Positions 48,053 to 63,746 of a DNA stretch of 64,000 nucleotides are shown in pieces. Under the pieces are notes generated by a model, which saw only the letters and a list, made by a program, of their open reading frames with translations, was not told the origin of the DNA and made no database searches. The number at the start of each line of letters is the position of its first letter. Position 1 is the first letter of the stretch. Source of the DNA: an uncultured Desulfospira sp. (GTDB lineage: Bacteria; Desulfobacterota; Desulfobacteria; Desulfobacterales; Desulfobacteraceae); assembly GCA_963663165.1 (NCBI GenBank), contig OY760175.1:6272001-6336000 (forward strand). The letters are read 5' to 3'. Made by a program: the position numbers and the translations under genes.

Positions 48053-48376
48053 ATGATATTTGACGAAGAAAAGCAGGCTTTGATTTCCCTGGGATTGAGA
48101 CTTAAAGCCGCCCGGATGGCAAGGAACGAAACCCAGAAAGAGTTTTCAGCCCGGATGTTTGTCTCTATCCCCACCCTTCAAAAGATGGAAAAAGGTCACC
48201 CGAGCATTGCCGTGGGCACCTGGGTAAAGGCCTTGTTCATCTTAAGCCGGCTGGATGACCTGGAAAAGCTGCTTGCCCCTTCAGGCTCCCTGGCCGAACA
48301 ATATGAAACCGAGCAAAAATTAAAAGGCCGCCGGCGGGTCCGCAAAAAAAATCAAGGGGAAAAAGGCCGCCCATGA
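48053..48376 (+). CDS. XRE-family HTH antitoxin (HipB-like)
   Basis: LKAARMARNETQKEFSARMFVSIPTLQKMEKG; ATGA overlap with the hipA remnant. Confidence 0.85.
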   Translation: MIFDEEKQALISLGLRLKAARMARNETQKEFSARMFVSIPTLQKMEKGHPSIAVGTWVKALFILSRLDDLEKLLAPSGSLAEQYETEQKLKGRRRVRKKNQGEKGRP

Positions 48377-49025
48377 TTAAGCTTGACGTCACCATCACCT
48401 TTCCTGACGGAAAGTTATGTCCATGCGGCGAGTTGATCACTACCCGGCCGGATAAACGGGGAAAAATTCAAGGAACGTTTCAGTATGCCAAACCATTTCT
48501 GGAGCATCCTCTGGCATTTGCCCTGGATCCTGAAAATTTGCCGTTAACCCTTCAGGTCAATTCGGCGGACCGTCCCCAAGGGGTTCATGCCGTGTTTGAA
48601 GACGCCCTTCCCGACGATTGGGGCAGAAAGCTTCTGGCCGGAAAAGCGGCCCTGACAAGATCGGAGCAAACCGTTCCAAGACTTCTTGAAGCCTTAGGGG
48701 CAAACGGCTTAGGGGCATTGTCTTTTACAGCCCAAAAACAGAATGCCAAAAGTGATCCGTGGTATACGACCTGCTGCCGGATATTTTTTCCAACCGGGAA
48801 CACCAATTGTCCTTTCCCTACTCCGGCACCCTGCAGCCGGACCGGCAACTTTATGAAAAAATCGGGCAGGAATTGCATATCCCTGATCCGGGAGAGGTCC
48901 TTGACCAGGTGTATAACGCCGCATCTGAATGGGAGACCGTTTTCCAGGAAATAGGTGTTCCTGAAACCGATATCCTGAGGCTTGAACCGGATATCTCAAG
49001 ACGGCTGGCAAAGATTAAATCTTAG
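48373..49025 (+). pseudogene. hipA: hipA copy 1: N-terminal domain joined out of frame to the C-terminal tail; kinase core deleted
   Basis: FALDP, FEDALPDDWGR, GALSF N-domain; at ~48760 the sequence jumps to VYDLLP... tail matching 61072 onward. Confidence 0.85.
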
Positions 49026-49209
49026 GGTCTGATACAGCGTTCACAGCGGGGCAACGCCTCAACATAATAAATAATAGTCCGGGGTTTTGAATCAAGCCTC
49101 ACTGCATTTTTTTAACGTAGTCCCCCATCAGGAATTTTTAATACCCCCCTGCAATGCTTCTGTCATTGAACGCTGATTCTAAATCGGCTCGGGCGACTAT
49201 AAATACCAT
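48761..49209 (+). repeat. ~450-bp direct repeat, copy 1
   Basis: Aligns with 61072-61519; scattered mismatches in the first ~170 bp, almost identical afterwards. Confidence 0.93.
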
Positions 49210-50915: not shown

Positions 50916-51710
50916 CTAAAACAACCTTTTTTTGCGGAATACCGCCAGGCTTGCCAGGCCGGTCGATAGAAACCAGAATGCGCCGGGGATGGGGACGGCG
51001 GCAAGGCCAGTAACGTCAACAACATAATAAACGTCATAAACCCCATAATCTTTCAGGTGCCAGTTATCATCATCTGAAAGGAAAACCTCATAATAGTCCA
51101 AACTGTCCGATCCCGAATAATCATCGGAATCCGTGATATAGATACCCGTAATCTCACCTTGATCATCCGTTTCAAACCCCCAACACGTAATCGCATGGCC
51201 GAACCAATTTTCACCAAGATAAAATCCTATACTAAGGACGGTACCATAACCATGTGTCAGGGAATATTCAATACTGTTCAACGCATCAGTGCCCCCGGAA
51301 CCGTCGTAAAAGGATGAAGAAAAATCGTTATAGGTATAAAAATCTCCACCGGATAAACCCGCTTCAAGTTGGGACCACCCATCTACTCCCTGTGCCTGAT
51401 TCACTCCATAAAACCACCATTCCCATCCGTATTGTGATTTTCCTCCCTCATCAGTCCAGTAGTCTTGAAAATAGGAGAATATTTGATCGGCGTCGCCAAT
51501 ATTGTTTCCCCAGCCGCTCCAGGCAAGAATATTAGCGGCTGCCGCTGCCCAGCACATTGAATCATCGTCTTCGTTTAACTTGGTTTTGTCTGCATCAGAC
51601 CAGGTGCCGCCGTAGTTCTCCCATAAATAGTAGGTTGAGGCGCCGGCTGAACCAGCCGAAACCGTAAAAAAAGCACTTAACACTGCAACAAAAAGGCATA
51701 TTTTCTTCAT
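50916..51710 (-). CDS. Secreted IdeS/Mac-like papain-fold cysteine peptidase with VPxP-CTERM signal
   Basis: RBS GAGGAG, signal peptide; DDSMCWAAAAANIL, GHAITCWG, IYITDSDD; C-terminal VPIPGAFWFLSTGLASLAVFRKKR. Confidence 0.78.
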   Translation of the reverse strand: MKKICLFVAVLSAFFTVSAGSAGASTYYLWENYGGTWSDADKTKLNEDDDSMCWAAAAANILAWSGWGNNIGDADQIFSYFQDYWTDEGGKSQYGWEWWFYGVNQAQGVDGWSQLEAGLSGGDFYTYNDFSSSFYDGSGGTDALNSIEYSLTHGYGTVLSIGFYLGENWFGHAITCWGFETDDQGEITGIYITDSDDYSGSDSLDYYEVFLSDDDNWHLKDYGVYDVYYVVDVTGLAAVPIPGAFWFLSTGLASLAVFRKKRLF

Positions 51711-52241
51711 AGGGCTCCTCCAAAACAAAGGGTTCGGTTTATTGGGCTGCAAAATATTGCCACCCGTCCGGGCATAGCTGGAAATCAGGTGCCTTTTAAG
51801 ACTCAATTTTTTTATATTATACAACAGTTTTTTGCAAACAATATTTCAAAAAAAATATAAAAAAAGTTAGCCTCATTGATTTTTGCCGCAACGACGCATA
51901 CGGCTTTCAGCAAGCTCTCTTAATCGCCTTTTCCGGTGTAAGAGACAGGCCTGGTGATTTCTTGCCTGCCCTTTTATCCGGATCCTTTGTCGGGGCAAAG
52001 CTGCTACAGTCCGTTATGTGCGCATGGCCCCGCCTTGAATCCGATGGCCAGCTTTTAAAAGTGTAACGCCTATCCCCTATATTCATAACGAAATAATGTA
52101 ACGACCAGATACCCCGCTGCCACACCCTGCTAAAAAATTATAAAAATCATACCCCGCATGCCGACCCCGCCGGTAGACCCCGCCGCTGACTTATTCAAAA
52201 TTTGCTACATATAATCTCCGTGATTCGAATCTTGGAGAAAA

Positions 52242-52592
52242 ATGATGGCAAAGAATTCTCGTGGAAAACGCCCTTGCTCTATTTGCCGAAAATGGTTTGC
52301 TCCTGATGTAAGACAAAAAGGCCGACAGAGAACATGCAGTCCGGTTTGCCAAAATGAGCTTCATCGAAGGCAATGTGAAAACTGGAACAGGAAAAACAAA
52401 GCGGTCTCCATAAATAATTACCTGGCAAAGAAAATTGAAAAGGCTCAAAACCTTCAAACATCCGGGAAATTGCCTGTTTTGCCGCTGGAAGTTATTGAAA
52501 CAGAATACGGTATCAAGCCGGCAATTATCGTCGAATATCTGGTTGCCCAGGTTATCTGTCATACCAAAGAAAAAATTCGAGAATTCCCATAA
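52242..52592 (+). CDS. Small basic Cys4 zinc-finger protein (element 1, gene 1)
   Basis: CSIC...CSPVC followed by an Arg/Lys-rich helix; RBS GGAG. Confidence 0.75.
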   Translation: MMAKNSRGKRPCSICRKWFAPDVRQKGRQRTCSPVCQNELHRRQCENWNRKNKAVSINNYLAKKIEKAQNLQTSGKLPVLPLEVIETEYGIKPAIIVEYLVAQVICHTKEKIREFP

Positions 52593-52768
52593 ACACCTCT
52601 GACTAATCGAATATTGATTTCAAGAGACAAGGTTATGTTAACCTCTTGTAATATTAAGATATACAAACAGAGTAATCGAATTTTGATTCTAAGAGACATC
52701 ATGCGCATAAGTTGTTGATAATATATATAGATACAAACAGAGTAATCAGTATTCCAGTTCAAGAGGCA
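52592..52768. repeat. Three degenerate ~38-bp direct repeats, 69-70-bp period
   Basis: Units ~52592-52629, 52661-52698, 52731-52768; consensus ATACAAACAGAGTAATC...TTC(T)AAGAG(A/G)CA; spacers 31 and 32 bp. Confidence 0.8.
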
Positions 52769-52835
52769 ACTGACAGCCGACCCTGGCCGGTGATATAAAA
52801 AGGCATCTGAAATTCTAAAAATAAGGAGATGTCTC

Positions 52836-53192
52836 ATGGCAAACAGGTTTTCATCCCGGGAATTATTTGAACTGAGGAACAATATCCCTGTGGATATGCT
52901 GATCAGGGATCATTTACAGATTCCATCCAAGATCAGGGATGGCTACTTTCGTTTTCTATGCCCTTTGTGCAATGAATTTCAAACCGCTGTAAATCCAGCC
53001 ACGAACCTGGCCAGGTGCTTCAGATGCGAAAAGAATTTTAATACCATCGACCTTGTCATGAAAATCAAGGGTTATGGCTTCCGGGATAGTGTTTTGTTTT
53101 TGAAACAAATAAATACGGCCCCCCAGGTTCAGACCGCAAAATTGACGGCTCTTGCTGCTATGGTCGGCAGACCCATGCCGGCAGGGCAGTGA
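52836..53192 (+). CDS. Primase-type (CHC2-like) zinc-ribbon protein
   Basis: FLCPLC...RCFRC...TIDLVM...F.D.V resembles the DnaG zinc-binding domain, no TOPRIM; RBS AAGGAG. Confidence 0.75.
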   Translation: MANRFSSRELFELRNNIPVDMLIRDHLQIPSKIRDGYFRFLCPLCNEFQTAVNPATNLARCFRCEKNFNTIDLVMKIKGYGFRDSVLFLKQINTAPQVQTAKLTALAAMVGRPMPAGQ

Positions 53193-53752
53193 ATATGGAA
53201 CGGTTGCTTGAGCTTGAAACCCTGATTGGTCGCAACCAGGAATGTTTTTACAAAATCGGCCGGGCCTTGAAGGAAATTCGAGATAACCGTTTGTACAAAC
53301 AGGCTTTGTTTGAGTCATTTGAAACATATACCAGGCAGCGATGGGATATGGGCAAGGCTTATGCCTACCGCCTGATCAGAGCCTATGAAGTGATCTACAA
53401 TTTGTCGCCAATTGGCGACAAGCTACCTGCCAACGAATCCCAGGTCCGTCCCCTGACTCAAATGGACTCCATAGAACAACGCCGTATCTGGAGGGAGATT
53501 ATAAACAGCGGCATGGAACTGACCGCACAAAATATCAAAAAATTTATTGAGGCCCGGAAAACGGCTCCGGCAAGTAGACCGGATCTGACAAATAAAATTT
53601 CAAATGAATACATGGCTGTTGTAAAGGCAATGCTTGAGCAGGTCCGTGTGGCACAACATGATCATTGGCAGCAGACCTCCCGCCAAGCCGCATTGTTGTG
53701 GCACCGGGTCATATACGAAAAGATCATATCAAAGGGGGCAGATAATGGATGA
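53189..53752 (+). CDS. Putative helical DNA-binding protein (ParB/KorB-like HTH region)
   Basis: FYKIGRALKEIRDNRLY...FETY...RWDM...AYRLI...NESQVRPL; GTGA overlap; close paralog at 57468. Confidence 0.65.
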   Translation: MNMERLLELETLIGRNQECFYKIGRALKEIRDNRLYKQALFESFETYTRQRWDMGKAYAYRLIRAYEVIYNLSPIGDKLPANESQVRPLTQMDSIEQRRIWREIINSGMELTAQNIKKFIEARKTAPASRPDLTNKISNEYMAVVKAMLEQVRVAQHDHWQQTSRQAALLWHRVIYEKIISKGADNG

Positions 53753-55409
53753 CCTAAGCATTGACGACCGCTTCCACTTACTGCTGCACAAAAAAATCAT
53801 GAACAAAACTGGATCTGCCAAGAGAAGATCCAAAAAATATTACAAGGACCAGTACAAAAAAAACGGGATTATCCCGCCTCCCCTTTTACTGGTTGAAAAA
53901 GGAATTATGGATGGCCGCAAGTGCAGCGGGCGGCCCAGAGTCATAGACGAACAAACCCAAAGGCGGTTTATTGAAATGGTCAAGGCGTCATGCGACCCCT
54001 CATCCCAGGGGTTCATTTTTATCACCCGGAGAGCCAGGACCATTAAAAATTACCACTGCTGGCTTGAGGAAGAGCTGGGGAAAAAAATCAGTCTCCCTGC
54101 ACTTTGGCGATGCGCCAAAAGGGAGAATCTCAAATTTTACCTGGAAAAAGAGGACGATCAGGAGCCGTCACCGGCACGTTATACCTTCAAATCGGTTACG
54201 GTGTTTACCTTGATCCAGGTTGACGGTTGCAAGTTCCAATATTTAAGAATCAGAGATGAACATGGCAACTGGCAGAAACCACGGGTAATTGAAATATTCG
54301 ATACCGGCTCCAGGAAACTGTTTATTATGGAATTCTATTTTACCGAAAGCAATCTGAATTCTGTGGATCTTTTTACCCGTTTTTTGTTGTGCACACCTTT
54401 TCCTTTGATAACAATCGGTATCAGGCCTGATCGGGCAAAGGGATTTTTAAATCTCAAGCGTCCCATTAATGCGATTAACCTTGCGCATTCTACGCCGGGC
54501 GGTTTTTATTTGGCACCGGATTTTTCAAGGGCGCATTCCCCCAAAGATAAGGCGCATCTGGAATCTTCACACCGAAGCCTGCATAATTTTGAAATACGAA
54601 TTATCAAAGCGTTTGAGAGCAGGATTGTGAAAACCGTTACCGAATATGACTTCAAGCGGGGAAGAAAGGAAAAAGTTACTGTAACCCTTCTTGATATCAC
54701 CCTTGATGAATTGAGGAACAGCACTGTGCTCAGCCAATACCGCAACGAACACAATCATACACAACATTATTTTACCGAAGACGGCGTAGTCAGTGCCTGG
54801 GTGCCGGCACAAAAGTTTGATGATTTTTTATCAAATCAGACAGACACCCTGAATTTTACCCCGGAGCAGGTTCAGGAATATATGAAATACGGTTACAGGA
54901 AAATCAAAGCCACGGTATCCAAAAATAGAACCATCCGCCATGACAAAAGGGATTATTATGTGACCAGTGGTGCAGACCGGTTCAGCAGGCATAAAAGTAC
55001 ACCGGTAAAAATATCCAGATACAGGGACAAACTTTTTATCTTTGAGCCCAGTGAAGACGGCATCCTGATAGGCGAAGCCATTGCAAAAAAGCCGTTTGAC
55101 AGCCCGCCGTCTCCAGCGACCGCTCCTGTACCCGACGAACTCGACACCATTATCGCTCTTTTGGAAAAGCACAATATGGCCGTTGACCGGCCTATTTTAA
55201 TCGAAGTTTACCATAAAGGCCTCACCTTGTCCCTGGCGGAGCAAGTGCTTCACCATAATCAATCAAGGTACGCAGATTACATGAAAAAAATGAACCAGCC
55301 TGAGGAACGTAAAAATCAAGCCTTATTTAATGCTTTTATGCTTGATTGCCAAAAATCGTTAAATACGAATCAGGTGGCCACTTATGCATCCCACGGAGAT
55401 ATGCCATGA
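53745..55409 (+). CDS. DDE transposase/integrase (Mu/TnsB/IstA-like)
   Basis: N-terminal SGRPR; candidate triad IQVDG, IRPD, KAHLESSHR; paralog at 58019. Confidence 0.8.
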   Translation: MDDLSIDDRFHLLLHKKIMNKTGSAKRRSKKYYKDQYKKNGIIPPPLLLVEKGIMDGRKCSGRPRVIDEQTQRRFIEMVKASCDPSSQGFIFITRRARTIKNYHCWLEEELGKKISLPALWRCAKRENLKFYLEKEDDQEPSPARYTFKSVTVFTLIQVDGCKFQYLRIRDEHGNWQKPRVIEIFDTGSRKLFIMEFYFTESNLNSVDLFTRFLLCTPFPLITIGIRPDRAKGFLNLKRPINAINLAHSTPGGFYLAPDFSRAHSPKDKAHLESSHRSLHNFEIRIIKAFESRIVKTVTEYDFKRGRKEKVTVTLLDITLDELRNSTVLSQYRNEHNHTQHYFTEDGVVSAWVPAQKFDDFLSNQTDTLNFTPEQVQEYMKYGYRKIKATVSKNRTIRHDKRDYYVTSGADRFSRHKSTPVKISRYRDKLFIFEPSEDGILIGEAIAKKPFDSPPSPATAPVPDELDTIIALLEKHNMAVDRPILIEVYHKGLTLSLAEQVLHHNQSRYADYMKKMNQPEERKNQALFNAFMLDCQKSLNTNQVATYASHGDMP

Positions 55410-56068
55410 AAGAGGATTTTATCAGTGATAAACGAAGGGTCTCATACCTGTCTGCTACTTATAACAGGATATACAGGGGTCAAAGCGTACTCATTGAAGG
55501 GGATTTTGGCGCAGGCAAAACTCGTTTTTTAAGACTGCTGCGGCCTAAAAAGCTCCATGCCGTATGGGTCGAGTCTCTGTTCAACATCCATGAAACCCTG
55601 GCATCCATACTTAAAGAACTGAATTATGAGACCTCCGCCACTTACCGCCGGACTCCCCAGTACCTGAAAACGATCTGCAACCTATCCAATTGTTTTATCA
55701 TCATAGATGAAGCCAACGACCTGGACTCCCGGGTTTGGCCATATCTCAAACGAATTATTGATGCCGGTGTCCCCATCGTATTTGCAGGGCTCCCCAAGGT
55801 CAGAACCTATTTGAGCCGGAATCATCCCGATATACTCAGCCGGCTCAAAACTCTGATTTTATATCCCATAGAGGTCGAGGACTTCATTGAAAAATACAAA
55901 GATATCCAGCATGAAGCAGTTGAACAGATATATATGGCCGTCAAAGGCGACATGAGAAAATTTAAAGAAATCTGTACAGACTGTCAGGACAGGGCAAAGG
56001 AGTTGAACCACAACTTTGTTGATATCAATCTTGCCCTGGAATTTATATCCGACCTTCCTCCCCAGTAA
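55406..56068 (+). CDS. AAA+ ATPase (MuB/TnsC/ExeA-like)
   Basis: Walker A GDFGAGKT, Walker B IIIDEA, LSR, GDMR; ATGA overlap with the transposase. Confidence 0.85.
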   Translation: MKEDFISDKRRVSYLSATYNRIYRGQSVLIEGDFGAGKTRFLRLLRPKKLHAVWVESLFNIHETLASILKELNYETSATYRRTPQYLKTICNLSNCFIIIDEANDLDSRVWPYLKRIIDAGVPIVFAGLPKVRTYLSRNHPDILSRLKTLILYPIEVEDFIEKYKDIQHEAVEQIYMAVKGDMRKFKEICTDCQDRAKELNHNFVDINLALEFISDLPPQ

Positions 56069-56661
56069 TCCTTATCACAATTTATCTGCACTAACAGGCC
56101 ACCTTGTGTTAGCACCAAGGGCGGCCTTGTTGTATCTGTTCATTATATAATGGTGCCGATGCCTGCTTGATCTATTGTTAATGTCTTGAAACCACAGACC
56201 ATTTTTGAGTTCTTTTTGGACCGTTACATTATTTTGCAATTATTCTTTTGATGACGATTTCACTCAACACTTTTAAATCACAATAAAAACATTGATTTTT
56301 ATCGGTAGCATCAAGCCTCAACACCGTTACAGTATTTGAAGCTCGTCACATGCTAAGATTCAAAAAATGTAACGCGGATACGCCAAATCAGCTACAAAAT
56401 AATATAACGGGAAGATATCCCGCCGCTTTACCCCGCCAATAAAATATATAAACCTTACCTCGCTTACCCCGCAGTTATCCCGCCGCGAATTTTTTCGAAA
56501 AAAGCTTTGCCAATCTATTTGGAAGAAGTCAATACTTCCTTGATAAAAAAGGCTCGAAGCTGCAACTTCGAGCCTTCAATGTAGACATCCGAGTAGGTTA
56601 CGGAAGCCACACCACCGTTTTTATCTAACCACGGCTTCCGTAATTTAGCAAGAGCGGAAGC

Positions 56662-57051
56662 ATGGAAATCGTTTTATTAAAACGTATCGAGTGTAAGCGA
56701 TGTTTCCAAATTTTCTATGTGTGCCGCAGTTGCTGGCGGGGGCAGGCATATTGCTGTCAAGAATGCCGCCAGGAGGCCCGCAAAGAAGCGCACTGCAAAG
56801 CTCAAAAAAAATATCGACAAACGCCAAAAGGTAAAGAGGCCCACCGTCGTCAAGAAAAAAACAAAAGATTACGTCAAGCTGAAAAAACCATGGATGATAC
56901 ATCTACTATACCCGGTGTAACCCATGATAGTGTCTCTCCCAAGCCATTATGTTCCGGCCCCTGTTGCCATTTTTGTGGGAAAATTGGTTGGGTTGTAGAG
57001 CATTTTCCCTGGCGCGGATATGCAAAACGACCTGTAAGGGCCAATCAATGA
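56662..57051 (+). CDS. Cys-rich zinc-finger protein (element 2, gene 1)
   Basis: CKRC...CRSC...YCCQEC, basic helix, C-terminal CHFC; not visibly homologous to 52242-52592. Confidence 0.75.
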   Translation: MEIVLLKRIECKRCFQIFYVCRSCWRGQAYCCQECRQEARKEAHCKAQKKYRQTPKGKEAHRRQEKNKRLRQAEKTMDDTSTIPGVTHDSVSPKPLCSGPCCHFCGKIGWVVEHFPWRGYAKRPVRANQ

Positions 57052-57075
57052 AACATCTTAATGGAGGATAAGACA

Positions 57076-57465
57076 ATGAAAAAAGAAATATTGACAGGCC
57101 ATTGCAACAAAATGAAAAACAGATTTTCATCCCGGGAGCTATTTAAACTGAGAAACGATATCCCTGTGGATATGCTGATCCGTGACCATTTACAGATTCC
57201 ATCCAAAATCAGGGATGGTGTTTTCCGGTTTTTATGTCCTTTGTGCAATGAGTTTCAAACCGCTGTAAATCCAGCCACCAATCTGGCCAGGTGTTTTCGG
57301 TGTGAGAAGAATTTCAACACCATTGATCTGGTCATGGAAGTCAAGGGATATGGATTCAGGGACAGTGTATTTTTTTTGAAAGAACTGGATGCGGTCTCCT
57401 ATGTCCCGGCAAATGTGTTGACGTCTCTTGCCACCGGTATCGGTCAACCCTGGCCTGGGAAGTAA
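57076..57465 (+). CDS. Primase-type (CHC2-like) zinc-ribbon protein
   Basis: Core nearly identical to 52836-53192; RBS GGAGGA before 57076 (alternative start 57112). Confidence 0.75.
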   Translation: MKKEILTGHCNKMKNRFSSRELFKLRNDIPVDMLIRDHLQIPSKIRDGVFRFLCPLCNEFQTAVNPATNLARCFRCEKNFNTIDLVMEVKGYGFRDSVFFLKELDAVSYVPANVLTSLATGIGQPWPGK

Positions 57466-57467
57466 AG

Positions 57468-58022
57468 ATGAAACGGCTGCTTCAACTGGAGACCCTTATT
57501 GCCCGTAATCAGGAGAGTTTCTATAAGATCGGTCAGGCGTTAAAAGAAATCCGTGACAGCCGCCTGTACAAACTGGCCCTGTTTGAGACATTTGAAGCAT
57601 ATACCAGGGAACGGTGGGATATGGGCAAGTCCCATGCATACCGCCTGATCAAATCTTATGAAGTGATCTATAATTTGTCCCCAATTGGGGACAAAACACC
57701 TGCCAATGAATCCCAGGTCCGGCCTCTTGCTCAATTGGACCCCCTGGACCAGCGCAACACCTGGAAGGCAATCATAGACAACGGTATTGAGTTAACCGCA
57801 CGGAACATCAAAAAATTTGTAGAGGCCCAAAAAATACCCCCGGAGAACAAACCGGATTTGGCGGAACGGATTTCGGCTGAATACATGGCAGCCGTACATG
57901 CAATGATTGAACAGGTGCGGGTGGCCCAGCATGATCATTGGCAGCAAACGTCCCGGCAGGCTGCATTGTTGTGGCACAGGGTGATCCGCGAAAAAATTTT
58001 ATCAAAAGGGGCAAGACAATGA
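57468..58022 (+). CDS. Putative helical DNA-binding protein
   Basis: Full-length paralog of 53189-53752. Confidence 0.65.
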   Translation: MKRLLQLETLIARNQESFYKIGQALKEIRDSRLYKLALFETFEAYTRERWDMGKSHAYRLIKSYEVIYNLSPIGDKTPANESQVRPLAQLDPLDQRNTWKAIIDNGIELTARNIKKFVEAQKIPPENKPDLAERISAEYMAAVHAMIEQVRVAQHDHWQQTSRQAALLWHRVIREKILSKGARQ

Positions 58023-59686
58023 AGAACCTGAGCCTTGATGACCGTTTTTATTTGCTGCTCCATAAAAAAATCATGAATAAAACCGGATCAGCCAAAAGAA
58101 GGTCCAAAAAATATTACAAAGACCAGTACAGGAAAACCGGCATTATCCCGACGCCCCTTCTACTGGTTGAAAAAGGGATTATGGACGGCCGCAAATGCAG
58201 CGGCCGGCCCCGGTCCATAGATGAACAAACCAAAAGGCGGTTTATCGAAATGGTCAAGGCCTCCTGTGACCCGTCATCCCAGGGGTTTATTTTTATTACC
58301 CGAAAAGCCAGAACCATTAAAAATTACCACTATTGGCTTGAAAGAGAATTGGGAAAAACCATCAGCCTTCCGGCACTCAGGCGATGTGCCCAAAGGGAAG
58401 GCCTTAAATTTTACCTGGAAAAAGAAGATTTTGAAGAAAATGCCCCGGTGAAAAACGCATTCAAGCCTGTTCCGGTGTTTGGCCTGATACAGGTAGACGG
58501 TTGCAACTTTCGATATTTAAAAATCAAAAATGAGGCTGGCCACTGGCAAAAACCCCAAGTCATTGAAACGTTTGATACCGGTTCCCGGTACATGTTTGAA
58601 CTTGATGCCTATTTCGATGAAAGCAGCTTAAGCTCAGTGGATTTGTTTAACCGGTTTTTGCTTTCCACCCCATTTCCCCAGAAGAAAGTCCGGTTCAGGC
58701 CGGATAACGCCACAGGATTTGTAAATCTCAAAAGAGTCATCAACGCCTTGAATATAAAACATTCCGTTCCCGGAGGATTTTATCTGGCGCCGGATTTTTC
58801 AAGGGTAAGTGCCCCCAGGGACAAGGCCCATCTTGAGTCCTCCCATCGCAGTCTTCATAATTTTGAAATCCGAATCATCAAGGCGTTTGAAGACAGGATT
58901 GTAAAGACCGTTCCAGGGGTTATCTTCAATAATAAGAAAAAAGAAAAAATCACTGTGACACTCCTTGATATTACACTCCGGGATTTAAGACACAGCCCCC
59001 TGATAAAAGAATACCGCCACGAACATAACCACACCAAACATTATTTTAGCGAAAATGGAAAGATCAGTGCATGGGTTCCGGCACAAAAGCTGGAAGAATT
59101 TTTATCAAGGCAAGCCGATATCCTTACCTTTTCACCGGATGAGGTGCAGGAATATATGAAGTATGGCTACAGGAAAATAAAAGCCACTGTATCTAACAAA
59201 AGAACCATTCGCCATGACAACCGGATCTATTGTGTAACCAGTGGTACAGACCGGTTCAGCAGGCATAAAAGTACACCGGTGCAAATATCAGTATATAAGG
59301 GCAAGCTGTTTATTTTTGAACGGGGGGAAGACGGCATACTATTGGGCGAAGCCCTTGCCACAAAGCCGTTTGACAAACCACCTGACCCAAAATCTGTACC
59401 AGTGGCCCCGGATGAACTCGACATGATGATCATTTTTCTGGAAAAGCACAACATGGCCGTCGACCGGCGAGTCTTAATTGAAGCTTATCATAGCGGCCTC
59501 ACTCTGGCCCGGGCTCAACAAGTGCTTCATCATAATCAATCCAGGTACAAGAATTATATGAAAAAGATGCGGCAACCTGAAACACAGAAAAAGCAGGCGG
59601 TATTCAATGCCTTTATGCTTGACTGCCGGAAATTGATCAATACAAACCATGTGGCCACGTATGCATCCTGCGGAGATTTAACATGA
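58019..59686 (+). CDS. DDE transposase/integrase
   Basis: IQVDG, FRPDN, KAHLESSHR; ATGA overlap; paralog of 53745-55409. Confidence 0.8.
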   Translation: MKNLSLDDRFYLLLHKKIMNKTGSAKRRSKKYYKDQYRKTGIIPTPLLLVEKGIMDGRKCSGRPRSIDEQTKRRFIEMVKASCDPSSQGFIFITRKARTIKNYHYWLERELGKTISLPALRRCAQREGLKFYLEKEDFEENAPVKNAFKPVPVFGLIQVDGCNFRYLKIKNEAGHWQKPQVIETFDTGSRYMFELDAYFDESSLSSVDLFNRFLLSTPFPQKKVRFRPDNATGFVNLKRVINALNIKHSVPGGFYLAPDFSRVSAPRDKAHLESSHRSLHNFEIRIIKAFEDRIVKTVPGVIFNNKKKEKITVTLLDITLRDLRHSPLIKEYRHEHNHTKHYFSENGKISAWVPAQKLEEFLSRQADILTFSPDEVQEYMKYGYRKIKATVSNKRTIRHDNRIYCVTSGTDRFSRHKSTPVQISVYKGKLFIFERGEDGILLGEALATKPFDKPPDPKSVPVAPDELDMMIIFLEKHNMAVDRRVLIEAYHSGLTLARAQQVLHHNQSRYKNYMKKMRQPETQKKQAVFNAFMLDCRKLINTNHVATYASCGDLT

Positions 59687-60345
59687 AGGCAGATTTTATC
59701 AGTGACAAACGAAGGGTATCATACCTGAGCGCCACTTATAGCCGGATCTACCGGGGCCGGAGCGTACTCATTGAGGGAGATTTTGGAGCGGGAAAAACCA
59801 GGTTTTTAAAACTGCTTCGTCCCAAAAAACTTCATGCCGTATGGGTAGAGTCCCTGTTCAACATACACGAAACCCTGGCATCCATACTCAAAGAATTGAA
59901 CTATGACACCACAGCCACATATCGCAGAACTCCCCAGTACCTGAAAATGATCTGCAACCTGTCCAACTGCTTTATTATTATTGATGAGGCCAATGATCTG
60001 GATACCAGGGTCTGGCCATATCTTAAGCGGATCATTGATGCCGGTGTTCCTATTGTTTTTGCAGGGCTTCCAAAGGTCAGGACCTATTTGATTCGCAATC
60101 ACCCTGATATCCTCAGCCGGTTGAAAACCCTGATTTTATATCCCATAGAGGTTGAGGGCTTTATCGAACAATATAAAGATATCCAGCAGGAAGCCGTTGA
60201 GCAAATTTATATGGCGGTCAAAGGCGACATGCGTAAATTTAAAGAAATCTGTACTGACTGCCGGGACAAGGCAAAGGAATTGAACCACCAATTTGTTGAC
60301 ATTAATCTTGCCCTGGAGTTTATATCTGACCTTCCTCCCCAGTAA
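59683..60345 (+). CDS. AAA+ ATPase (MuB/TnsC/ExeA-like)
   Basis: GDFGAGKT, IIIDEA; highly similar to 55406-56068. Confidence 0.85.
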   Translation: MKADFISDKRRVSYLSATYSRIYRGRSVLIEGDFGAGKTRFLKLLRPKKLHAVWVESLFNIHETLASILKELNYDTTATYRRTPQYLKMICNLSNCFIIIDEANDLDTRVWPYLKRIIDAGVPIVFAGLPKVRTYLIRNHPDILSRLKTLILYPIEVEGFIEQYKDIQQEAVEQIYMAVKGDMRKFKEICTDCRDKAKELNHQFVDINLALEFISDLPPQ

Positions 60346-60368
60346 TCCCTGAAAAGTAGATCCGTAAA

Positions 60369-60407
60369 AACAGGCCACTTCTGATTTAACCGGAAGATGG
60401 CCTGTTT
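60369..60407 (+). terminator. Hairpin after the ATPase gene
   Basis: AACAGGCCA-CTTC...GAAG-ATGGCCTGTT; counterpart in element 1 at ~56094-56130. Confidence 0.55.
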
Positions 60408-60628
60408 ATATTTTGACCTTAATTGATTAACGCAATTTTTCGCCTGGATATACCTGTGAAAATCAGGGAACCACAGATTGTTTTTGAATCTTTTTTGAAC
60501 CGTTACATTAATTTGCAACTTTCAATATTTTTGACTGCCAACCTAACCTACTAAATTTATATGAAAAACCATTTCTTTTTTGAAATAATGAACGAAAAAA
60601 AATCCGTTACATTATTTGAATGTGAGCA

Positions 60629-61336
60629 GGCGCACGGCCAAAGGCCCTGGTGCAAAAAGATGACGGGTCCTGCTGGATTGCAAAATTCCCCCGGCTGAGG
60701 GATCAGTTTTCCGTTGAATCCCTTGAAGCTGCCTGTCTTGAGCTTGCCCGTTCCGCAGGCCTGCCTGTCCCTGATTTTCAGATTTATGAGGCCGGGGAAC
60801 GTAAGATTCTACTGGTAAAACGCTTTGACGTTACAGCCCGTGGCGGCCGGAACCACATGATCAGCATGCAAACCCTGCTGAATGCCGACGGGTACTATCA
60901 TTTGTCATATTCCGACGTTTTCAGCCGGATTGCCAAACACAGCTCTCAGGTTTCCCGGGATATGGCACTGATGTTCAGACAGATGGTGTTTAATACGGCC
61001 ATGGGCAACACCGACGATCATTTAAAAAACTTTTTCATGCTGCACACCGGACAGGGTTTTGAAATGTCCCCGGTATACGACCTGCTGCCGGACATTTTTT
61101 TTAACCGGGAACACCAGTTATCCTTTCCATACTCCGGCACCCTGCCGCCGGATCGGCAAATTTATGAAAAAATCGGGAAAGAATTGCATATCCCTGATCC
61201 GGGGAAGGTTCTTGACCAGGTGTATAACGCCGTATCTGAATGGAAGACCGTTTTCCAGGAAATAGGTGTTCCTGAAACCGATATCCTGAGGCTTGAACCG
61301 GATATCTCAAGACGGCTGGCAAAGATTAAATCTTAG
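60629..61336 (+). pseudogene. hipA: hipA copy 2: kinase core and tail, 5' part removed at the transposon end
   Basis: GARPKA, IAKFP, LLVKRFD, GNTDDHLKNF, SPVYDL; begins at the first base after the element 2 right end. Confidence 0.88.
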
Positions 61337-61519
61337 GGTCTGATACAGCGTTCACAGCGGGGCAACGCCTCAACATAATAAATAATAGTCCGGGGTTTTG
61401 AATCAGGCCTCACTGCATTTTTTTAACGTAGTCCCCCATCAGGAATTTTTAATACCCCCCTGCAATGCTTCTGTCATTGAACGCTGATTCTAAATCGGCT
61501 CGGGCAACATAAATACCAT
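61072..61519 (+). repeat. ~450-bp direct repeat, copy 2
   Basis: Aligns with 48761-49209. Confidence 0.93.
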
Positions 61520-61727
61520 AACCGTCAATTAAATCGACATCTTCTGCTTTGATTCCTAATTCTTGATAGATTTCAACTACATTTTTATTCATTTCACCAT
61601 CAGCAGAGTAAGTTACATTAAATAAGTCTTTATCATAACTACTTGTAATTGTATATGCATCTGCTGATTTTGCTATAATTGCAGGAGCAATAAGTGATAA
61701 TGCTGCAGCTGCAATTTTTGTTTTTAA

Positions 61728-63266
61728 CCCTACAACGTAACTTAGGGTGTATTCTTTCTATCAAGAAGCCTCCTTTTTCGATGCGATAGATATGCAGCGT
61801 GATTGCGCCTTTGGTAATACAAAACCGATTGTATAACGGTATGAAAATGACAAGGTCTCAATGGCAAAACCACCTCCATTAGTATTCTAAGCTGCGACAC
61901 TGTAATAGATGGAGCTTTTTTTTCCCATCCTGATTTTCAGGTGCCACAAGAAAAAATGTGCAAGCATGCACGTTATTATATGATGATTCCAGCCTGGGTA
62001 TTTACGGACCTCATAATGATCCATGCCGAGTTCAGTCTTGGTTTCCTCAAAACACTGTTCAATTGCCCAACGAATACCACTAAGCCATACAAAAAGCTTT
62101 AATCTGGCACTAACCCCGGCATTGCTAAGGAAAAATTTATAATCCGGGGATTTCCCAAGGGTTCGCCTCATGATCAGCCACACCGATTTTGTAGGCGTGT
62201 TTCCTTTGGAAAGTACCACTCGTCTTTTGGTAAATTCATATTCAATAGGTCCTTTGGTACCTTCAGATACTTTCCGGCGGTACCAGAAAAAATCATTTAT
62301 ATTTTTTGCGATAGTTTTGACATCGACCGGCTTTTTGGAGGATTTTTCAACAACTATTTTTGTACGCTGCTCTCCTTTGTATTTGTAAGTTTTTTCAACG
62401 GTAATAGGTCTGTTAAACCAGCATTGAGTATTACAAGGAACTTCTACAAAATAGGTCAAATCCGGATGTTGCTCAACAGCTTCAATAAAATCATCACTGT
62501 TGCCATACAATGAATCCGCGGTAACATACTTAAACGGCACGATGGCTTCTTCTGCGAGTTCGTTCAACATTTCGGAAGCCAATTGCGGTTTTGTCTTAAA
62601 CGAAACAGACTCAGGCAGTTTGCACTTTTTTCTTCCCTGTTTGTGATCGTCTTTAAACCATAGTTCAGGTATAAACAGTCGTTTATCAATCAATCCGTAG
62701 CCCTTTGGGGAAGCATAGGCTGCAAAAACACCCACTTGGCTGTTTTCAACCTTGCCGACATTCCCGCAATATTGTCTGGCAACACCGATGGATTCATTGC
62801 CTTTTTTAACAAAACCGCTTTCATCAAAAATAAGAACGCCGTCAGGTGTCCCCATATCTTCATTTATGAGATTACGATACTTGGCCATAATATTGGCGTC
62901 ATTCCATTCAGTATCGCTAATAAAACGCTGCATTGCCCTAACATTGCCATCTTCAACGGCCAGAGCAATGGGTTCAATTGATTTTCTTTCCAGGTCACTA
63001 AATTGCCCAGCCATATACCTGAAAAAATGTTCCCTTGACTCAGAACGATGAAAACAGTCGTGGAAAATTTCATGAAACCCTTTAAGTTCATTGAAAAAAT
63101 TTTTTACATCCCCTTCACAGATATCAAATTTGGGGATAGGATAAAGGTACTCATCTTTTCGGATTTCAGGCAACATACTCTACCTCCTATATAAAAGTTA
63201 TATTGCGGAGTGTAGCAGATTATGTTACCTAAAACAATAATATTAAATATAAGTCACGTTGTAGGG
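61728..63266 (-). mobile_element. IS701-family insertion sequence (1539 bp)
   Basis: 17-bp inverted repeats CCCTACAACGT(A/G)ACTTA; TTAA duplicated at 61724-61727 and 63267-63270. Confidence 0.93.
61887..63176 (-). CDS. IS701-family transposase
   Basis: LIFDESGFVKKG, GVARQYCG...NSQ, ADSLYG, RWAIEQCFEETKTELGMDHYEVR. Confidence 0.93.
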   Translation of the reverse strand: MLPEIRKDEYLYPIPKFDICEGDVKNFFNELKGFHEIFHDCFHRSESREHFFRYMAGQFSDLERKSIEPIALAVEDGNVRAMQRFISDTEWNDANIMAKYRNLINEDMGTPDGVLIFDESGFVKKGNESIGVARQYCGNVGKVENSQVGVFAAYASPKGYGLIDKRLFIPELWFKDDHKQGRKKCKLPESVSFKTKPQLASEMLNELAEEAIVPFKYVTADSLYGNSDDFIEAVEQHPDLTYFVEVPCNTQCWFNRPITVEKTYKYKGEQRTKIVVEKSSKKPVDVKTIAKNINDFFWYRRKVSEGTKGPIEYEFTKRRVVLSKGNTPTKSVWLIMRRTLGKSPDYKFFLSNAGVSARLKLFVWLSGIRWAIEQCFEETKTELGMDHYEVRKYPGWNHHIITCMLAHFFLWHLKIRMGKKSSIYYSVAA

Positions 63267-63746
63267 TTAATCCCTTTACCATTTTTAATTAGCAATAAAT
63301 ATTTTTAAAATGAAAAATTTAATTTTTTAAAACAAAAAGTCATCTTCGTCTTTCAACGGTGCGTTTCCTGCCAACCATGCACTCTATCCTTCTTCCGGTC
63401 AGGGTTGATGTTTACTTTCTGTCTCAGGAACAGAATGCAATTAGTATGCCATGCTTTGTCTTCCCATCATACAAGGCGATTGTTTGCCATAACATATTGT
63501 TTTCTATATTCTTAGCGCATAAGGCCGGTCCTGGTGCCCTTTCTTCCCTTATCGAAGGTAATATAGCCAATTGAGAAAAAAAAGTAACACATTGGGTAAA
63601 AAAATTCCCATAGGGCGAAAAAATATTCACACTTTATTCTAACGTTAATGCTGGGCGTTGTGGGGTAGGGTCGGGCCAAGCTAACCAGCTGTTATTCTAA
63701 AGATTTCATTTAAAAATCTATCCATAACCAGGCTTAATTGAAGGTT

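Follow-up and report, generated by a model that had tools for sequence, protein, structure and literature searches.

A conserved, IHF-spaced array linked to a zinc-finger gene: a candidate promoter control region in bacterial mobile elements

Background

A short array of three direct repeats, close to CRISPR arrays in the size of its repeats and spacers, lies inside a five-gene DDE transposon of an uncultured Desulfospira sp., and the question is what such an array may do there. The DNA analysed, hereafter the window, is a stretch of 64,000 bp from contig OY760175.1 (assembly GCA_963663165.1, positions 6,272,001 to 6,336,000), which holds two elements with the same core genes. An earlier note on this sequence had offered several options for the array: a Mu-like enhancer or an operator with IHF bends, sites for a zinc-finger protein, or a small guide-RNA array for target choice. 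These options, and others, were evaluated by comparing the locus with its relatives.

Results and discussion

Layout of the array and of the elements in the window

The three 38-bp units and the two spacers of 31 and 32 bp were found as originally placed (Table 1), between gene 1 and the CHC2 gene which opens the core operon. Units 2 and 3 do share the 17-mer ATACAAACAGAGTAATC, and all three units end in AAGAG(A/G)CA. The array extends from the gene 1 stop codon to a point 67 bp 5' of the CHC2 gene. An IHF-like match had been reported for spacer 2, and a weaker one for spacer 1: the former, TAAGTTGTTGATA, fits 9/9 informative positions of the consensus WATCARnnnnTTR on the other strand, and the latter, TAACCTCTTGTAA, fits 7/9. 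Judged from the window only, the repeat is modest, at 72% over 50 nt; the array is beyond chance because the same three-unit arrangement is shared by 33 distinct relatives and by 63 of 71 metagenome loci found by pattern, among the matches listed. As to the extent of the feature, the repeat units stand as described, but the 'spacers' are not free sequence, since they contain conserved motifs, and the feature continues to a predicted promoter at 52770-52799. This promoter, adjoining unit 3, and the in-frame form taken by the array in relatives were both absent from the earlier note. TG-A precedes its -10 hexamer and the transcription start is predicted near 52806; the promoter is not listed by the promoter scanner, which requires a final T.

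Table 1. Features of element 1, element 2 and the array, in window coordinates.
Feature	Position	Strand	Remarks
Element 1 (type A)	52045..56348	+	4304-bp five-gene DDE transposon, TG...CA ends; 6-bp target duplications in other copies
Left end of element 1	52045..52102	+	two TGTAAC motifs (52062, 52097), presumed to be transposase sites and differing from the array boxes
Four CCCGC repeats	52113..52183	+	before the gene 1 promoter; go with CHC2 as second gene; putative role
Predicted sigma70 promoter of gene 1	52186..52215	+	CTGACT-18-TATAAT, consensus 10/12
Gene 1	52242..52592	+	CxxC-x16-CxxxC zinc finger, basic helices, C-terminal helical hairpin; candidate array binder
Unit 1	52592..52629	+	box 1 GACTAATC 52601-52608, box 2 TTCAAGAGACA 52619-52629
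Spacer 1	52630..52660		IHF-type core 52639-52651 (7/9)
Unit 2	52661..52698	+	box 1 52670-52677, box 2 52688-52698
Spacer 2	52699..52730		IHF-type core 52708-52720 (9/9), centre about -92 from predicted start
Unit 3	52731..52768	+	box 1 52740-52747, box 2 52758-52768, centre about -43 (-48 to -38) from predicted start
Predicted sigma70-type promoter of the mobility operon	52770..52799	+	-35 CTGACA 52770-52775, 18-bp spacer, -10 TATAAA 52794-52799
Stand-alone CHC2 (DnaG-type) zinc-binding domain	52836..53192	+	PF01807 over cut-off; RBS AGGAG 52824-52828
ORF3, conserved helical protein	53189..53752	+	weak NF033725 match below cut-off; alignment
DDE transposase, TnsB/MuA-like	53745..55409	+	invariant D160, D229, E273; phrog_310 weak
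AAA+ ATPase, MuB/TnsC-like	55406..56068	+	PF13401; phrog_296 DNA transposition protein, E 7e-13
Element 2 (type C)	56351..60628	+	same four core genes (74-93% aa), different gene 1, without array

The lack of the array in element 2, already pointed out, was verified by a profile of the units, whose best score there is -1.1 as compared with a median of 33 for the training units; judged by its sequence, element 2 is a natural negative control for the array. The statement that no cas genes are present in the window was upheld for cas1, all four genomic matches of which fall outside it. For the transposase, the profile found no PDB sequence, and a low-confidence model of the protein gave ShCAST TnsB as best Foldseek hits (E 4e-6). 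Element 1 is found in the genome in three near-identical copies, plus two at 80-85%, and element 2 in six copies, four of them flanked by 6-bp duplications. A transposase match was detected in 33 of the 151 genomes of the family. Both ends and the array are present in 47 of 120 loci examined, representing 34 distinct insertion sites, 25 with a 6-bp duplication; over the 34 sites the target preference is weak (NNCGNN).

Other features of the two elements and of their surroundings were recorded. CCCGC repeats are also present near 56415-56490, in element 2, and at 580-660 of locus L071, where CHC2 is again the second gene, and in several elements with a winged-HTH second gene TTCTT-rich tracts take their place; the repeats (52113-52215) and the second gene are suggestive of a second pair of protein and sites. 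The leader of element 2 (56530-56664) contains a strong hairpin and, next to the start codon of its different gene 1, the complementary segments ACGGAAGC and GCTTCCG, all kept in relatives L020 and L074; it may possibly provide control at the RNA level, as an alternative to the array. At 56348-56351 the two elements meet, the left end of element 2 following the right end of element 1 after a 2-bp gap; no target duplication is shared, and the arrangement resembles the junction of a circle or of a tandem. In two RNA-labelled runs, 6% of the words were present, in the form of contigs from relatives, and a circle junction was absent from the joints listed in them. Both elements are flanked by the parts of a broken hipBA-like locus, with about 360 bp of the hipA 3' end duplicated 12.3 kb apart (48053-49114 and 60650-61425). 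Further away, 50916-51824 on the minus strand encodes a protein of 302 aa that looks secreted, has a weak Mac-1 protease-like match and bears at its C-terminus a VPIP motif, which we take to resemble a PEP-CTERM sorting tail, and 61724-63270 is another insertion sequence, distinct from the two elements, that has inverted repeats of 21 bp and a DDE_5 transposase. In locus L074, a type A copy carries a five-gene IS21 element inserted in its CHC2 gene and a further element near its ATPase end.

Conservation of boxes, IHF-type cores and predicted promoter

Searches with gene 1 led to 104 loci with a gene 1 match, reduced to 76 non-redundant ones. The non-redundant loci in which the box 2 pattern finds three units at 69-71 bp make up a set of 33 elements, within which the conservation of box 2 is circular, because the set was picked by box 2; the tests on IHF cores, promoter and phasing are free of this circularity, and the relatives compared are kin, not independent samples. 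Across relatives, the unit spans 69-70 bp and contains box 1 GACTAATC, box 2 TTTAAGAGGCA and, always at the same offset, a core that matches the IHF consensus. Its consensus in the 33 elements is GAT-N4-AC-N-A(C/G)TAATC-N10-TTTAAGA(G/C)(G/A)CA-T-N8-TAAC-N3-YTG(T/A)(A/T), with conserved blocks every 20-21 bp, about two helical turns.

At the fixed offset, an IHF score of at least 7/9 is reached by 32/33 first spacers and 27/33 second spacers, by none of the 33 sequences following unit 3 and by 3.5% of the shuffles. Genes for IHF-alpha-like and IHF-beta-like proteins are present in the host as best hits, under cut-off, and the IHF sites of D. vulgaris are close to the E. coli consensus (PMC3897727).

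The promoter was evaluated in 44 elements, i.e. the set of 33 plus 11 of other classes. In all 44, a -35-like hexamer lies one base 3' of the third box 2 and is followed, after 16-18 bp (18 bp in 30/44), by a -10 hexamer starting with TA. A sigma70-type score of at least 8/12 is reached after unit 3 in 40/44 elements, facing the transposition operon, as compared to 1/44 after unit 1 or 2 and to 1.4% of the shuffles. The -35 hexamer is TTGACA in none of the 44.

As an independent sample, a scan of metagenomes by the DNA pattern alone detected at least 119 stretches, 80 of which were fetched, resulting in 71 non-redundant loci. Besides those with three units, two units were detected in 8/71 and more in none; an IHF score of at least 7 was found for 120/134 spacers, the promoter in 59/71 loci, and gene 1 upstream of the array in 57 of the 62 loci with room for it, all among the matches listed. 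The five listed loci lacking gene 1 comprise two chance matches and three arrays with unrelated upstream DNA. One locus from the pattern scan, L217, is a coding region and was discarded as a chance match. The two-unit pattern had no match in viral contigs. Decayed copies, with gene 1 broken and the array collapsed to one unit, were seen in L109 (and L023) and in L149.

Linkage of the array to gene 1

Gene 1 has no significant Pfam or NCBIfam family, and an Atlas search returned unnamed clusters only; its family numbers 3710 representatives at 50% clustering. The predicted model of the protein (pLDDT 71, pTM 0.37) features a zinc knuckle, basic helices and a C-terminal hairpin. It has no Foldseek match at E <=0.001 and no VIA match at Z >=5; the weak fold matches are treble-clef-type fingers, L24e-type RNA-binding fingers included, all with E > 1. 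Treble-clef-type fingers can read DNA via a following helix.

A motif-free autocorrelation test was used to look at the period of the array. The top period is 68-71 in 52 of 56 operons led by gene 1 and in 1 of 15 loci without a following operon, five further loci being too short, while the five elements led by the other gene 1 have scores at background level. The operons behind gene 1 and the array vary: CHC2-ORF3-transposase-ATPase, ParB-IstA-IstB, HTH-IstA, and an HTH or CHC2 gene followed by a RIT trio. As far as sequences tell, the array thus goes with the zinc-finger gene 1 whatever recombinase comes next, be it TnsB/Mu-like, IS21 or a tyrosine-recombinase trio. Named relatives belong mostly to Desulfobacterales and Desulfobulbales, with one IS21-linked copy in Caballeronia. 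The tree of gene 1 is poorly resolved, so that the five changes of recombinase type it needs are reduced to only 1-2 per group when just the starred branches are trusted; since the tree is too weak, no order of events is claimed. A distant relative of gene 1 is found in locus L190 (4489-8417), with repeated GCAAAGATG motifs at its 3' end, before a serine recombinase and two ParB genes; this is possibly a fourth recombinase type behind gene 1.

Members of two known groups of elements were encountered among these operons. IS21 elements are bounded by TG...CA, have repeated motifs at their ends and a helper ATPase, and leave a gap of 2 bp between abutting elements. Element 1 resembles IS21 (IstA + IstB) in all these respects, and true IS21 members bear the cassette formed by gene 1 and the array; however, the transposase and ATPase of element 1 do not match NF033546 or NF038214, both of which are matched over cut-off by the genome's own IS21-type element. 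As for RIT elements, a RIT-type element present in four copies in this genome (G000; L071:545-4620) carries gene 1 with an in-frame array and CHC2, followed by three tyrosine recombinases. The description of RIT elements, in the portion available, covers the three recombinase genes only (PMC2864759). The right end of the L071 element holds a perfect IHF consensus, and in genome G090 (loci L035, L038 and L075) a RIT-type gene 1-CHC2 head directly abuts a type A left end, in two copies. Tn6048 and Tn6049 of C. metallidurans were considered as known relatives and set aside, no link being found in the available parts of the sources.

In-frame form of the array

Many relatives have the array within the 3' end of gene 1, in frame, the 69 bp of a unit corresponding to 23 codons. 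Pairs of [LIVF]Q[DEA] exactly 23 residues apart are found in 127, and triplets in 65, of the best 150 of the 3710 family representatives, with 0.18 expected from shuffles; the share is biased upward, because the query held the motif. In the Caballeronia in-frame copy TTA is used for 6 of 17 leucines, as compared with 3 of 99 in its three neighboring genes, an excess which points to a constraint on DNA. An open forward frame is found in none of the 33 arrays located downstream of gene 1, although in these the boxes, the spacing, the IHF cores and the promoter are all conserved. In the RIT element of this genome, whose array is in frame, period and promoter are present and the IHF cores are weak.

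Of nine in-frame arrays tested, six align, when translated, with the C-terminal segment of gene 1 from the window (0/300 shuffles each); the three that do not are of the LQD type. We infer from these alignments that an overlapped array was duplicated in this lineage, one copy being kept as protein and the other as DNA site.

A probable control region of the mobility operon

Conservation, fixed spacing, matches to the IHF and promoter consensuses and linkage to gene 1 are established for the sequences compared, and they support the option of an operator with IHF bends, or of sites for the zinc-finger protein, as a DNA-site reading. A role of the array on the promoter at the DNA level, whatever its sign, appears quite likely. 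Within it, we regard as probable, by a modest measure, that the array is an IHF-bent upstream control region through which the product of gene 1 activates the promoter of the mobility operon. Three bipartite sites, each made of box 1 and box 2, would alternate with two putative IHF sites, all acting as double-stranded DNA. IHF would bend each spacer, folding the three sites together, and the zinc-finger protein would bind them cooperatively, as the co-occurrence of gene 1 and array suggests. The proximal site, centred about -43 and ending one base before a non-consensus -35, has the geometry for class II-type activation of the sigma70 RNA polymerase, and transposase and ATPase would be made only if the gene 1 protein and IHF are both sufficient.

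Activation is favoured over repression because the proximal site sits where class II activators bind, beside a poor -35. The sites of such activators overlap the -35 region, as that of CRP at -41.5 (PMC1874639). Class II sigma70 promoters (lambda pM with CI at OR2, CRP at -41.5, Mu Mor) are similar in having a proximal site near -43 beside the -35 and further sites upstream; the present array differs in its unannotated protein family, in its sites placed every 69-70 bp with IHF between them, and in that activation is predicted from geometry. Some points weigh against activation by gene 1. Plain physical linkage would also keep the array with gene 1, most of all in the overlapping form; the sites could be bound by a host protein; and with the extended -10 TG found in the closest relatives the promoter could do without an activator. 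The site at -48 to -38 could equally be that of a repressor.

The same architecture with the opposite sign is an alternative to which we assign a minor probability: the IHF-bent array would be wrapped by the gene 1 protein, or by a host factor, and the promoter repressed, as it is by the Mu repressor at O1-O3. All the conservation evidence applies to it as well, basal activity may come from the extended -10 TG, and in Mu the early promoter is silenced by an operator that overlaps an IHF-containing element (PMC3145075). The sites, however, end one base before the -35, leaving -35, -10 and start free, and a -35 which is non-consensus in 44/44 elements fits activation better.

The likeness to Mu extends to a further function, as its enhancer, some 1 kb from the left end, is formed by two clusters of sites with an IHF site between them (PMC3145075). 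The nearest known layout is indeed, by analogy, that of the Mu operator O1-O3/enhancer (E, IAS) with Pe, where a DDE element that has a MuB-like ATPase bears in its left portion repeated sites split by IHF, beside the promoter of the transposition genes (PMC3145075). Two Mu features are found in the array, judging from consensus matches: an IHF site between clusters of protein sites, and a position adjoining the promoter of the transposition genes. It might thus be supposed that the IHF-bent array helps to pair the element ends, with or without a promoter role, the more so as transposase and ATPase are TnsB/MuA- and MuB-like and the array lies about 0.6 kb inside the left end. We consider this improbable, and as the main role an enhancer of Mu type read by the transposase is unlikely: the array keeps to gene 1 across unrelated recombinases, IS21 and tyrosine-recombinase elements included, while element 2, which has a 74%-identical transposase and has moved repeatedly, does without it. 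Moreover, the boxes are unlike the end motifs, and the enhancer of Mu is read by the transposase itself. The layouts differ, too, in that two putative IHF sites and three evenly spaced bipartite sites are present here; the presumed binder is a separate zinc-finger protein, in place of the repressor and transposase of Mu; and the array is exchanged between DDE and tyrosine-recombinase elements, may lie across its own gene and is missing in a sister element.

Iterated sites combined with IHF bring to mind plasmid origins and P1 parS. An iteron-type origin or parS-type centromere, serving the element as an excised circle and recognized by its accessory protein (CHC2, HTH or ParB-like), would agree with this and with the replication- or partition-related look of the accessory genes. 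It is very unlikely, as CHC2, HTH, ORF3 and ParB are all found without the array and arrays are found without each of them, no helicase or primase catalytic domain occurs among the five genes, and the fixed promoter is left unexplained.

Action at the RNA level, as repeated protein or antitermination sites or as a type III-like antitoxin in a read-through transcript of gene 1, would suit the sense-strand position right behind gene 1, the L24e-type fingers among the weak fold matches (E > 1) and the small hairpin possible in units 1 and 2. Conserved pseudoknot-free structure was looked for and not found: RNAalifold gave 0 pairs in 26 sequences, the top mutual-information pairs are without Watson-Crick covariation, and the folding z is 0.20 in the window, with means of +0.78 and -0.26 for the two strands over 33 arrays. 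In type III toxin-antitoxin systems, structured RNA repeats lie upstream of the toxin; here neither a conserved RNA structure of that kind nor, among the downstream operon genes, a toxin family was found, and little credit can be given to this reading.

A CRISPR- or TIGR-like guide array, picking insertion targets, is suggested by the CRISPR-like sizes and, as in TIGR, by the alternation of two short conserved boxes. Comparison of the spacers across homologous elements, one of the checks originally proposed, largely refuted guides: over 528 element pairs, spacer identity falls gradually with gene 1 divergence, from 0.78 to 0.52, nearly in step with that of the repeats, from 0.86 to 0.59, and spacers were therefore inherited by point mutation, not acquired. 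Another check, a search of the spacers against insertion flanks, revealed no excess at the 25 sites with a duplication, where the longest match averages 6.92 nt, as compared to 6.82 for shuffled flanks and 6.98 for non-cognate arrays. In addition, identical single arrays sit at 8, 7 and 4 unrelated sites, none of the loci listed has more than three units, and, with up to 6 mismatches allowed, the spacers have no further match in the genome. Differently from CRISPR, spacers are homologous between elements, both share motifs, and the number of units does not vary beyond three; Rfam gave no CRISPR match for the array, only two chance hits (E >=3). TIGR units are of 36 nt, with two 8-12-nt repeats and 9-nt spacers, mostly in 5-15 copies, and TIGR-Tas needs an adjacent Nop-domain Tas protein (PMC12045711). 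The array, in contrast, has three copies of 69-70-bp units and no target match in the flanks or elsewhere in the genome, the element encodes no Nop or Cas protein, and no Nop (PF01798) match was found in the 96.7%-complete genome. Three observations on the other side were treated as due to chance: the presence of host cas1 genes elsewhere in the genome; the similarity of unit 1 to one host CRISPR repeat family (13/15 aligned bases, P about 0.03-0.06, uncorrected); and a true CRISPR array (L269) caught in the pattern scan, whose repeat, containing TTCAAGAGGCA, begins with the same 11 bases as box 2. The guide reading is thus hardly credible.

Equally implausible is the view that the array is left over from a protein repeat of 23 residues, or from a tandem duplication now decayed, and does nothing as DNA. 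In many relatives it is translated as the tail of gene 1, with the [LIVF]Q[DEA] spacing reported above, but the idea is refuted by the conservation of the non-coding copies, none of which has an open frame, and is opposed by the TTA leucine excess in Caballeronia.

Meaning of the array

Neither the array nor the cassette, its occurrence in IS21 included, was found described in the main texts of CC-licensed PMC and bioRxiv papers. The array is real and conserved, and as a putative IHF-spaced promoter array, within a portable regulatory cassette, it is apparently undescribed. A false CRISPR-like lead is thereby removed, and a compact, testable promoter gained. The in-frame form carries a warning, as DNA sites can give rise, by the way, to a conserved 'LQD' repeat of 23 residues in a protein.

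Going further, gene 1 and the array might form a portable transcription switch not described so far, a proposal that we regard as tentative and somewhat doubtful. In it, a zinc-finger activator would bind an array within its own coding sequence, ahead of TnsB/Mu-like, IS21 and tyrosine-recombinase elements, with mobility gated on IHF. A second accessory protein (CHC2 or winged HTH) would read the other repeats, at the promoter of gene 1, closing a feedback loop that may result in pulses or on/off transposition, and the overlap would have been resolved in this lineage by duplication into a protein copy and a DNA-site copy.

IS-sized elements are generally held to be controlled by repression and poor expression. 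If the activator reading is true, an IHF-gated activator cassette common to three recombinase types would be a new way of timing transposition, and a function would be provided for the large, unannotated protein family to which gene 1 belongs.
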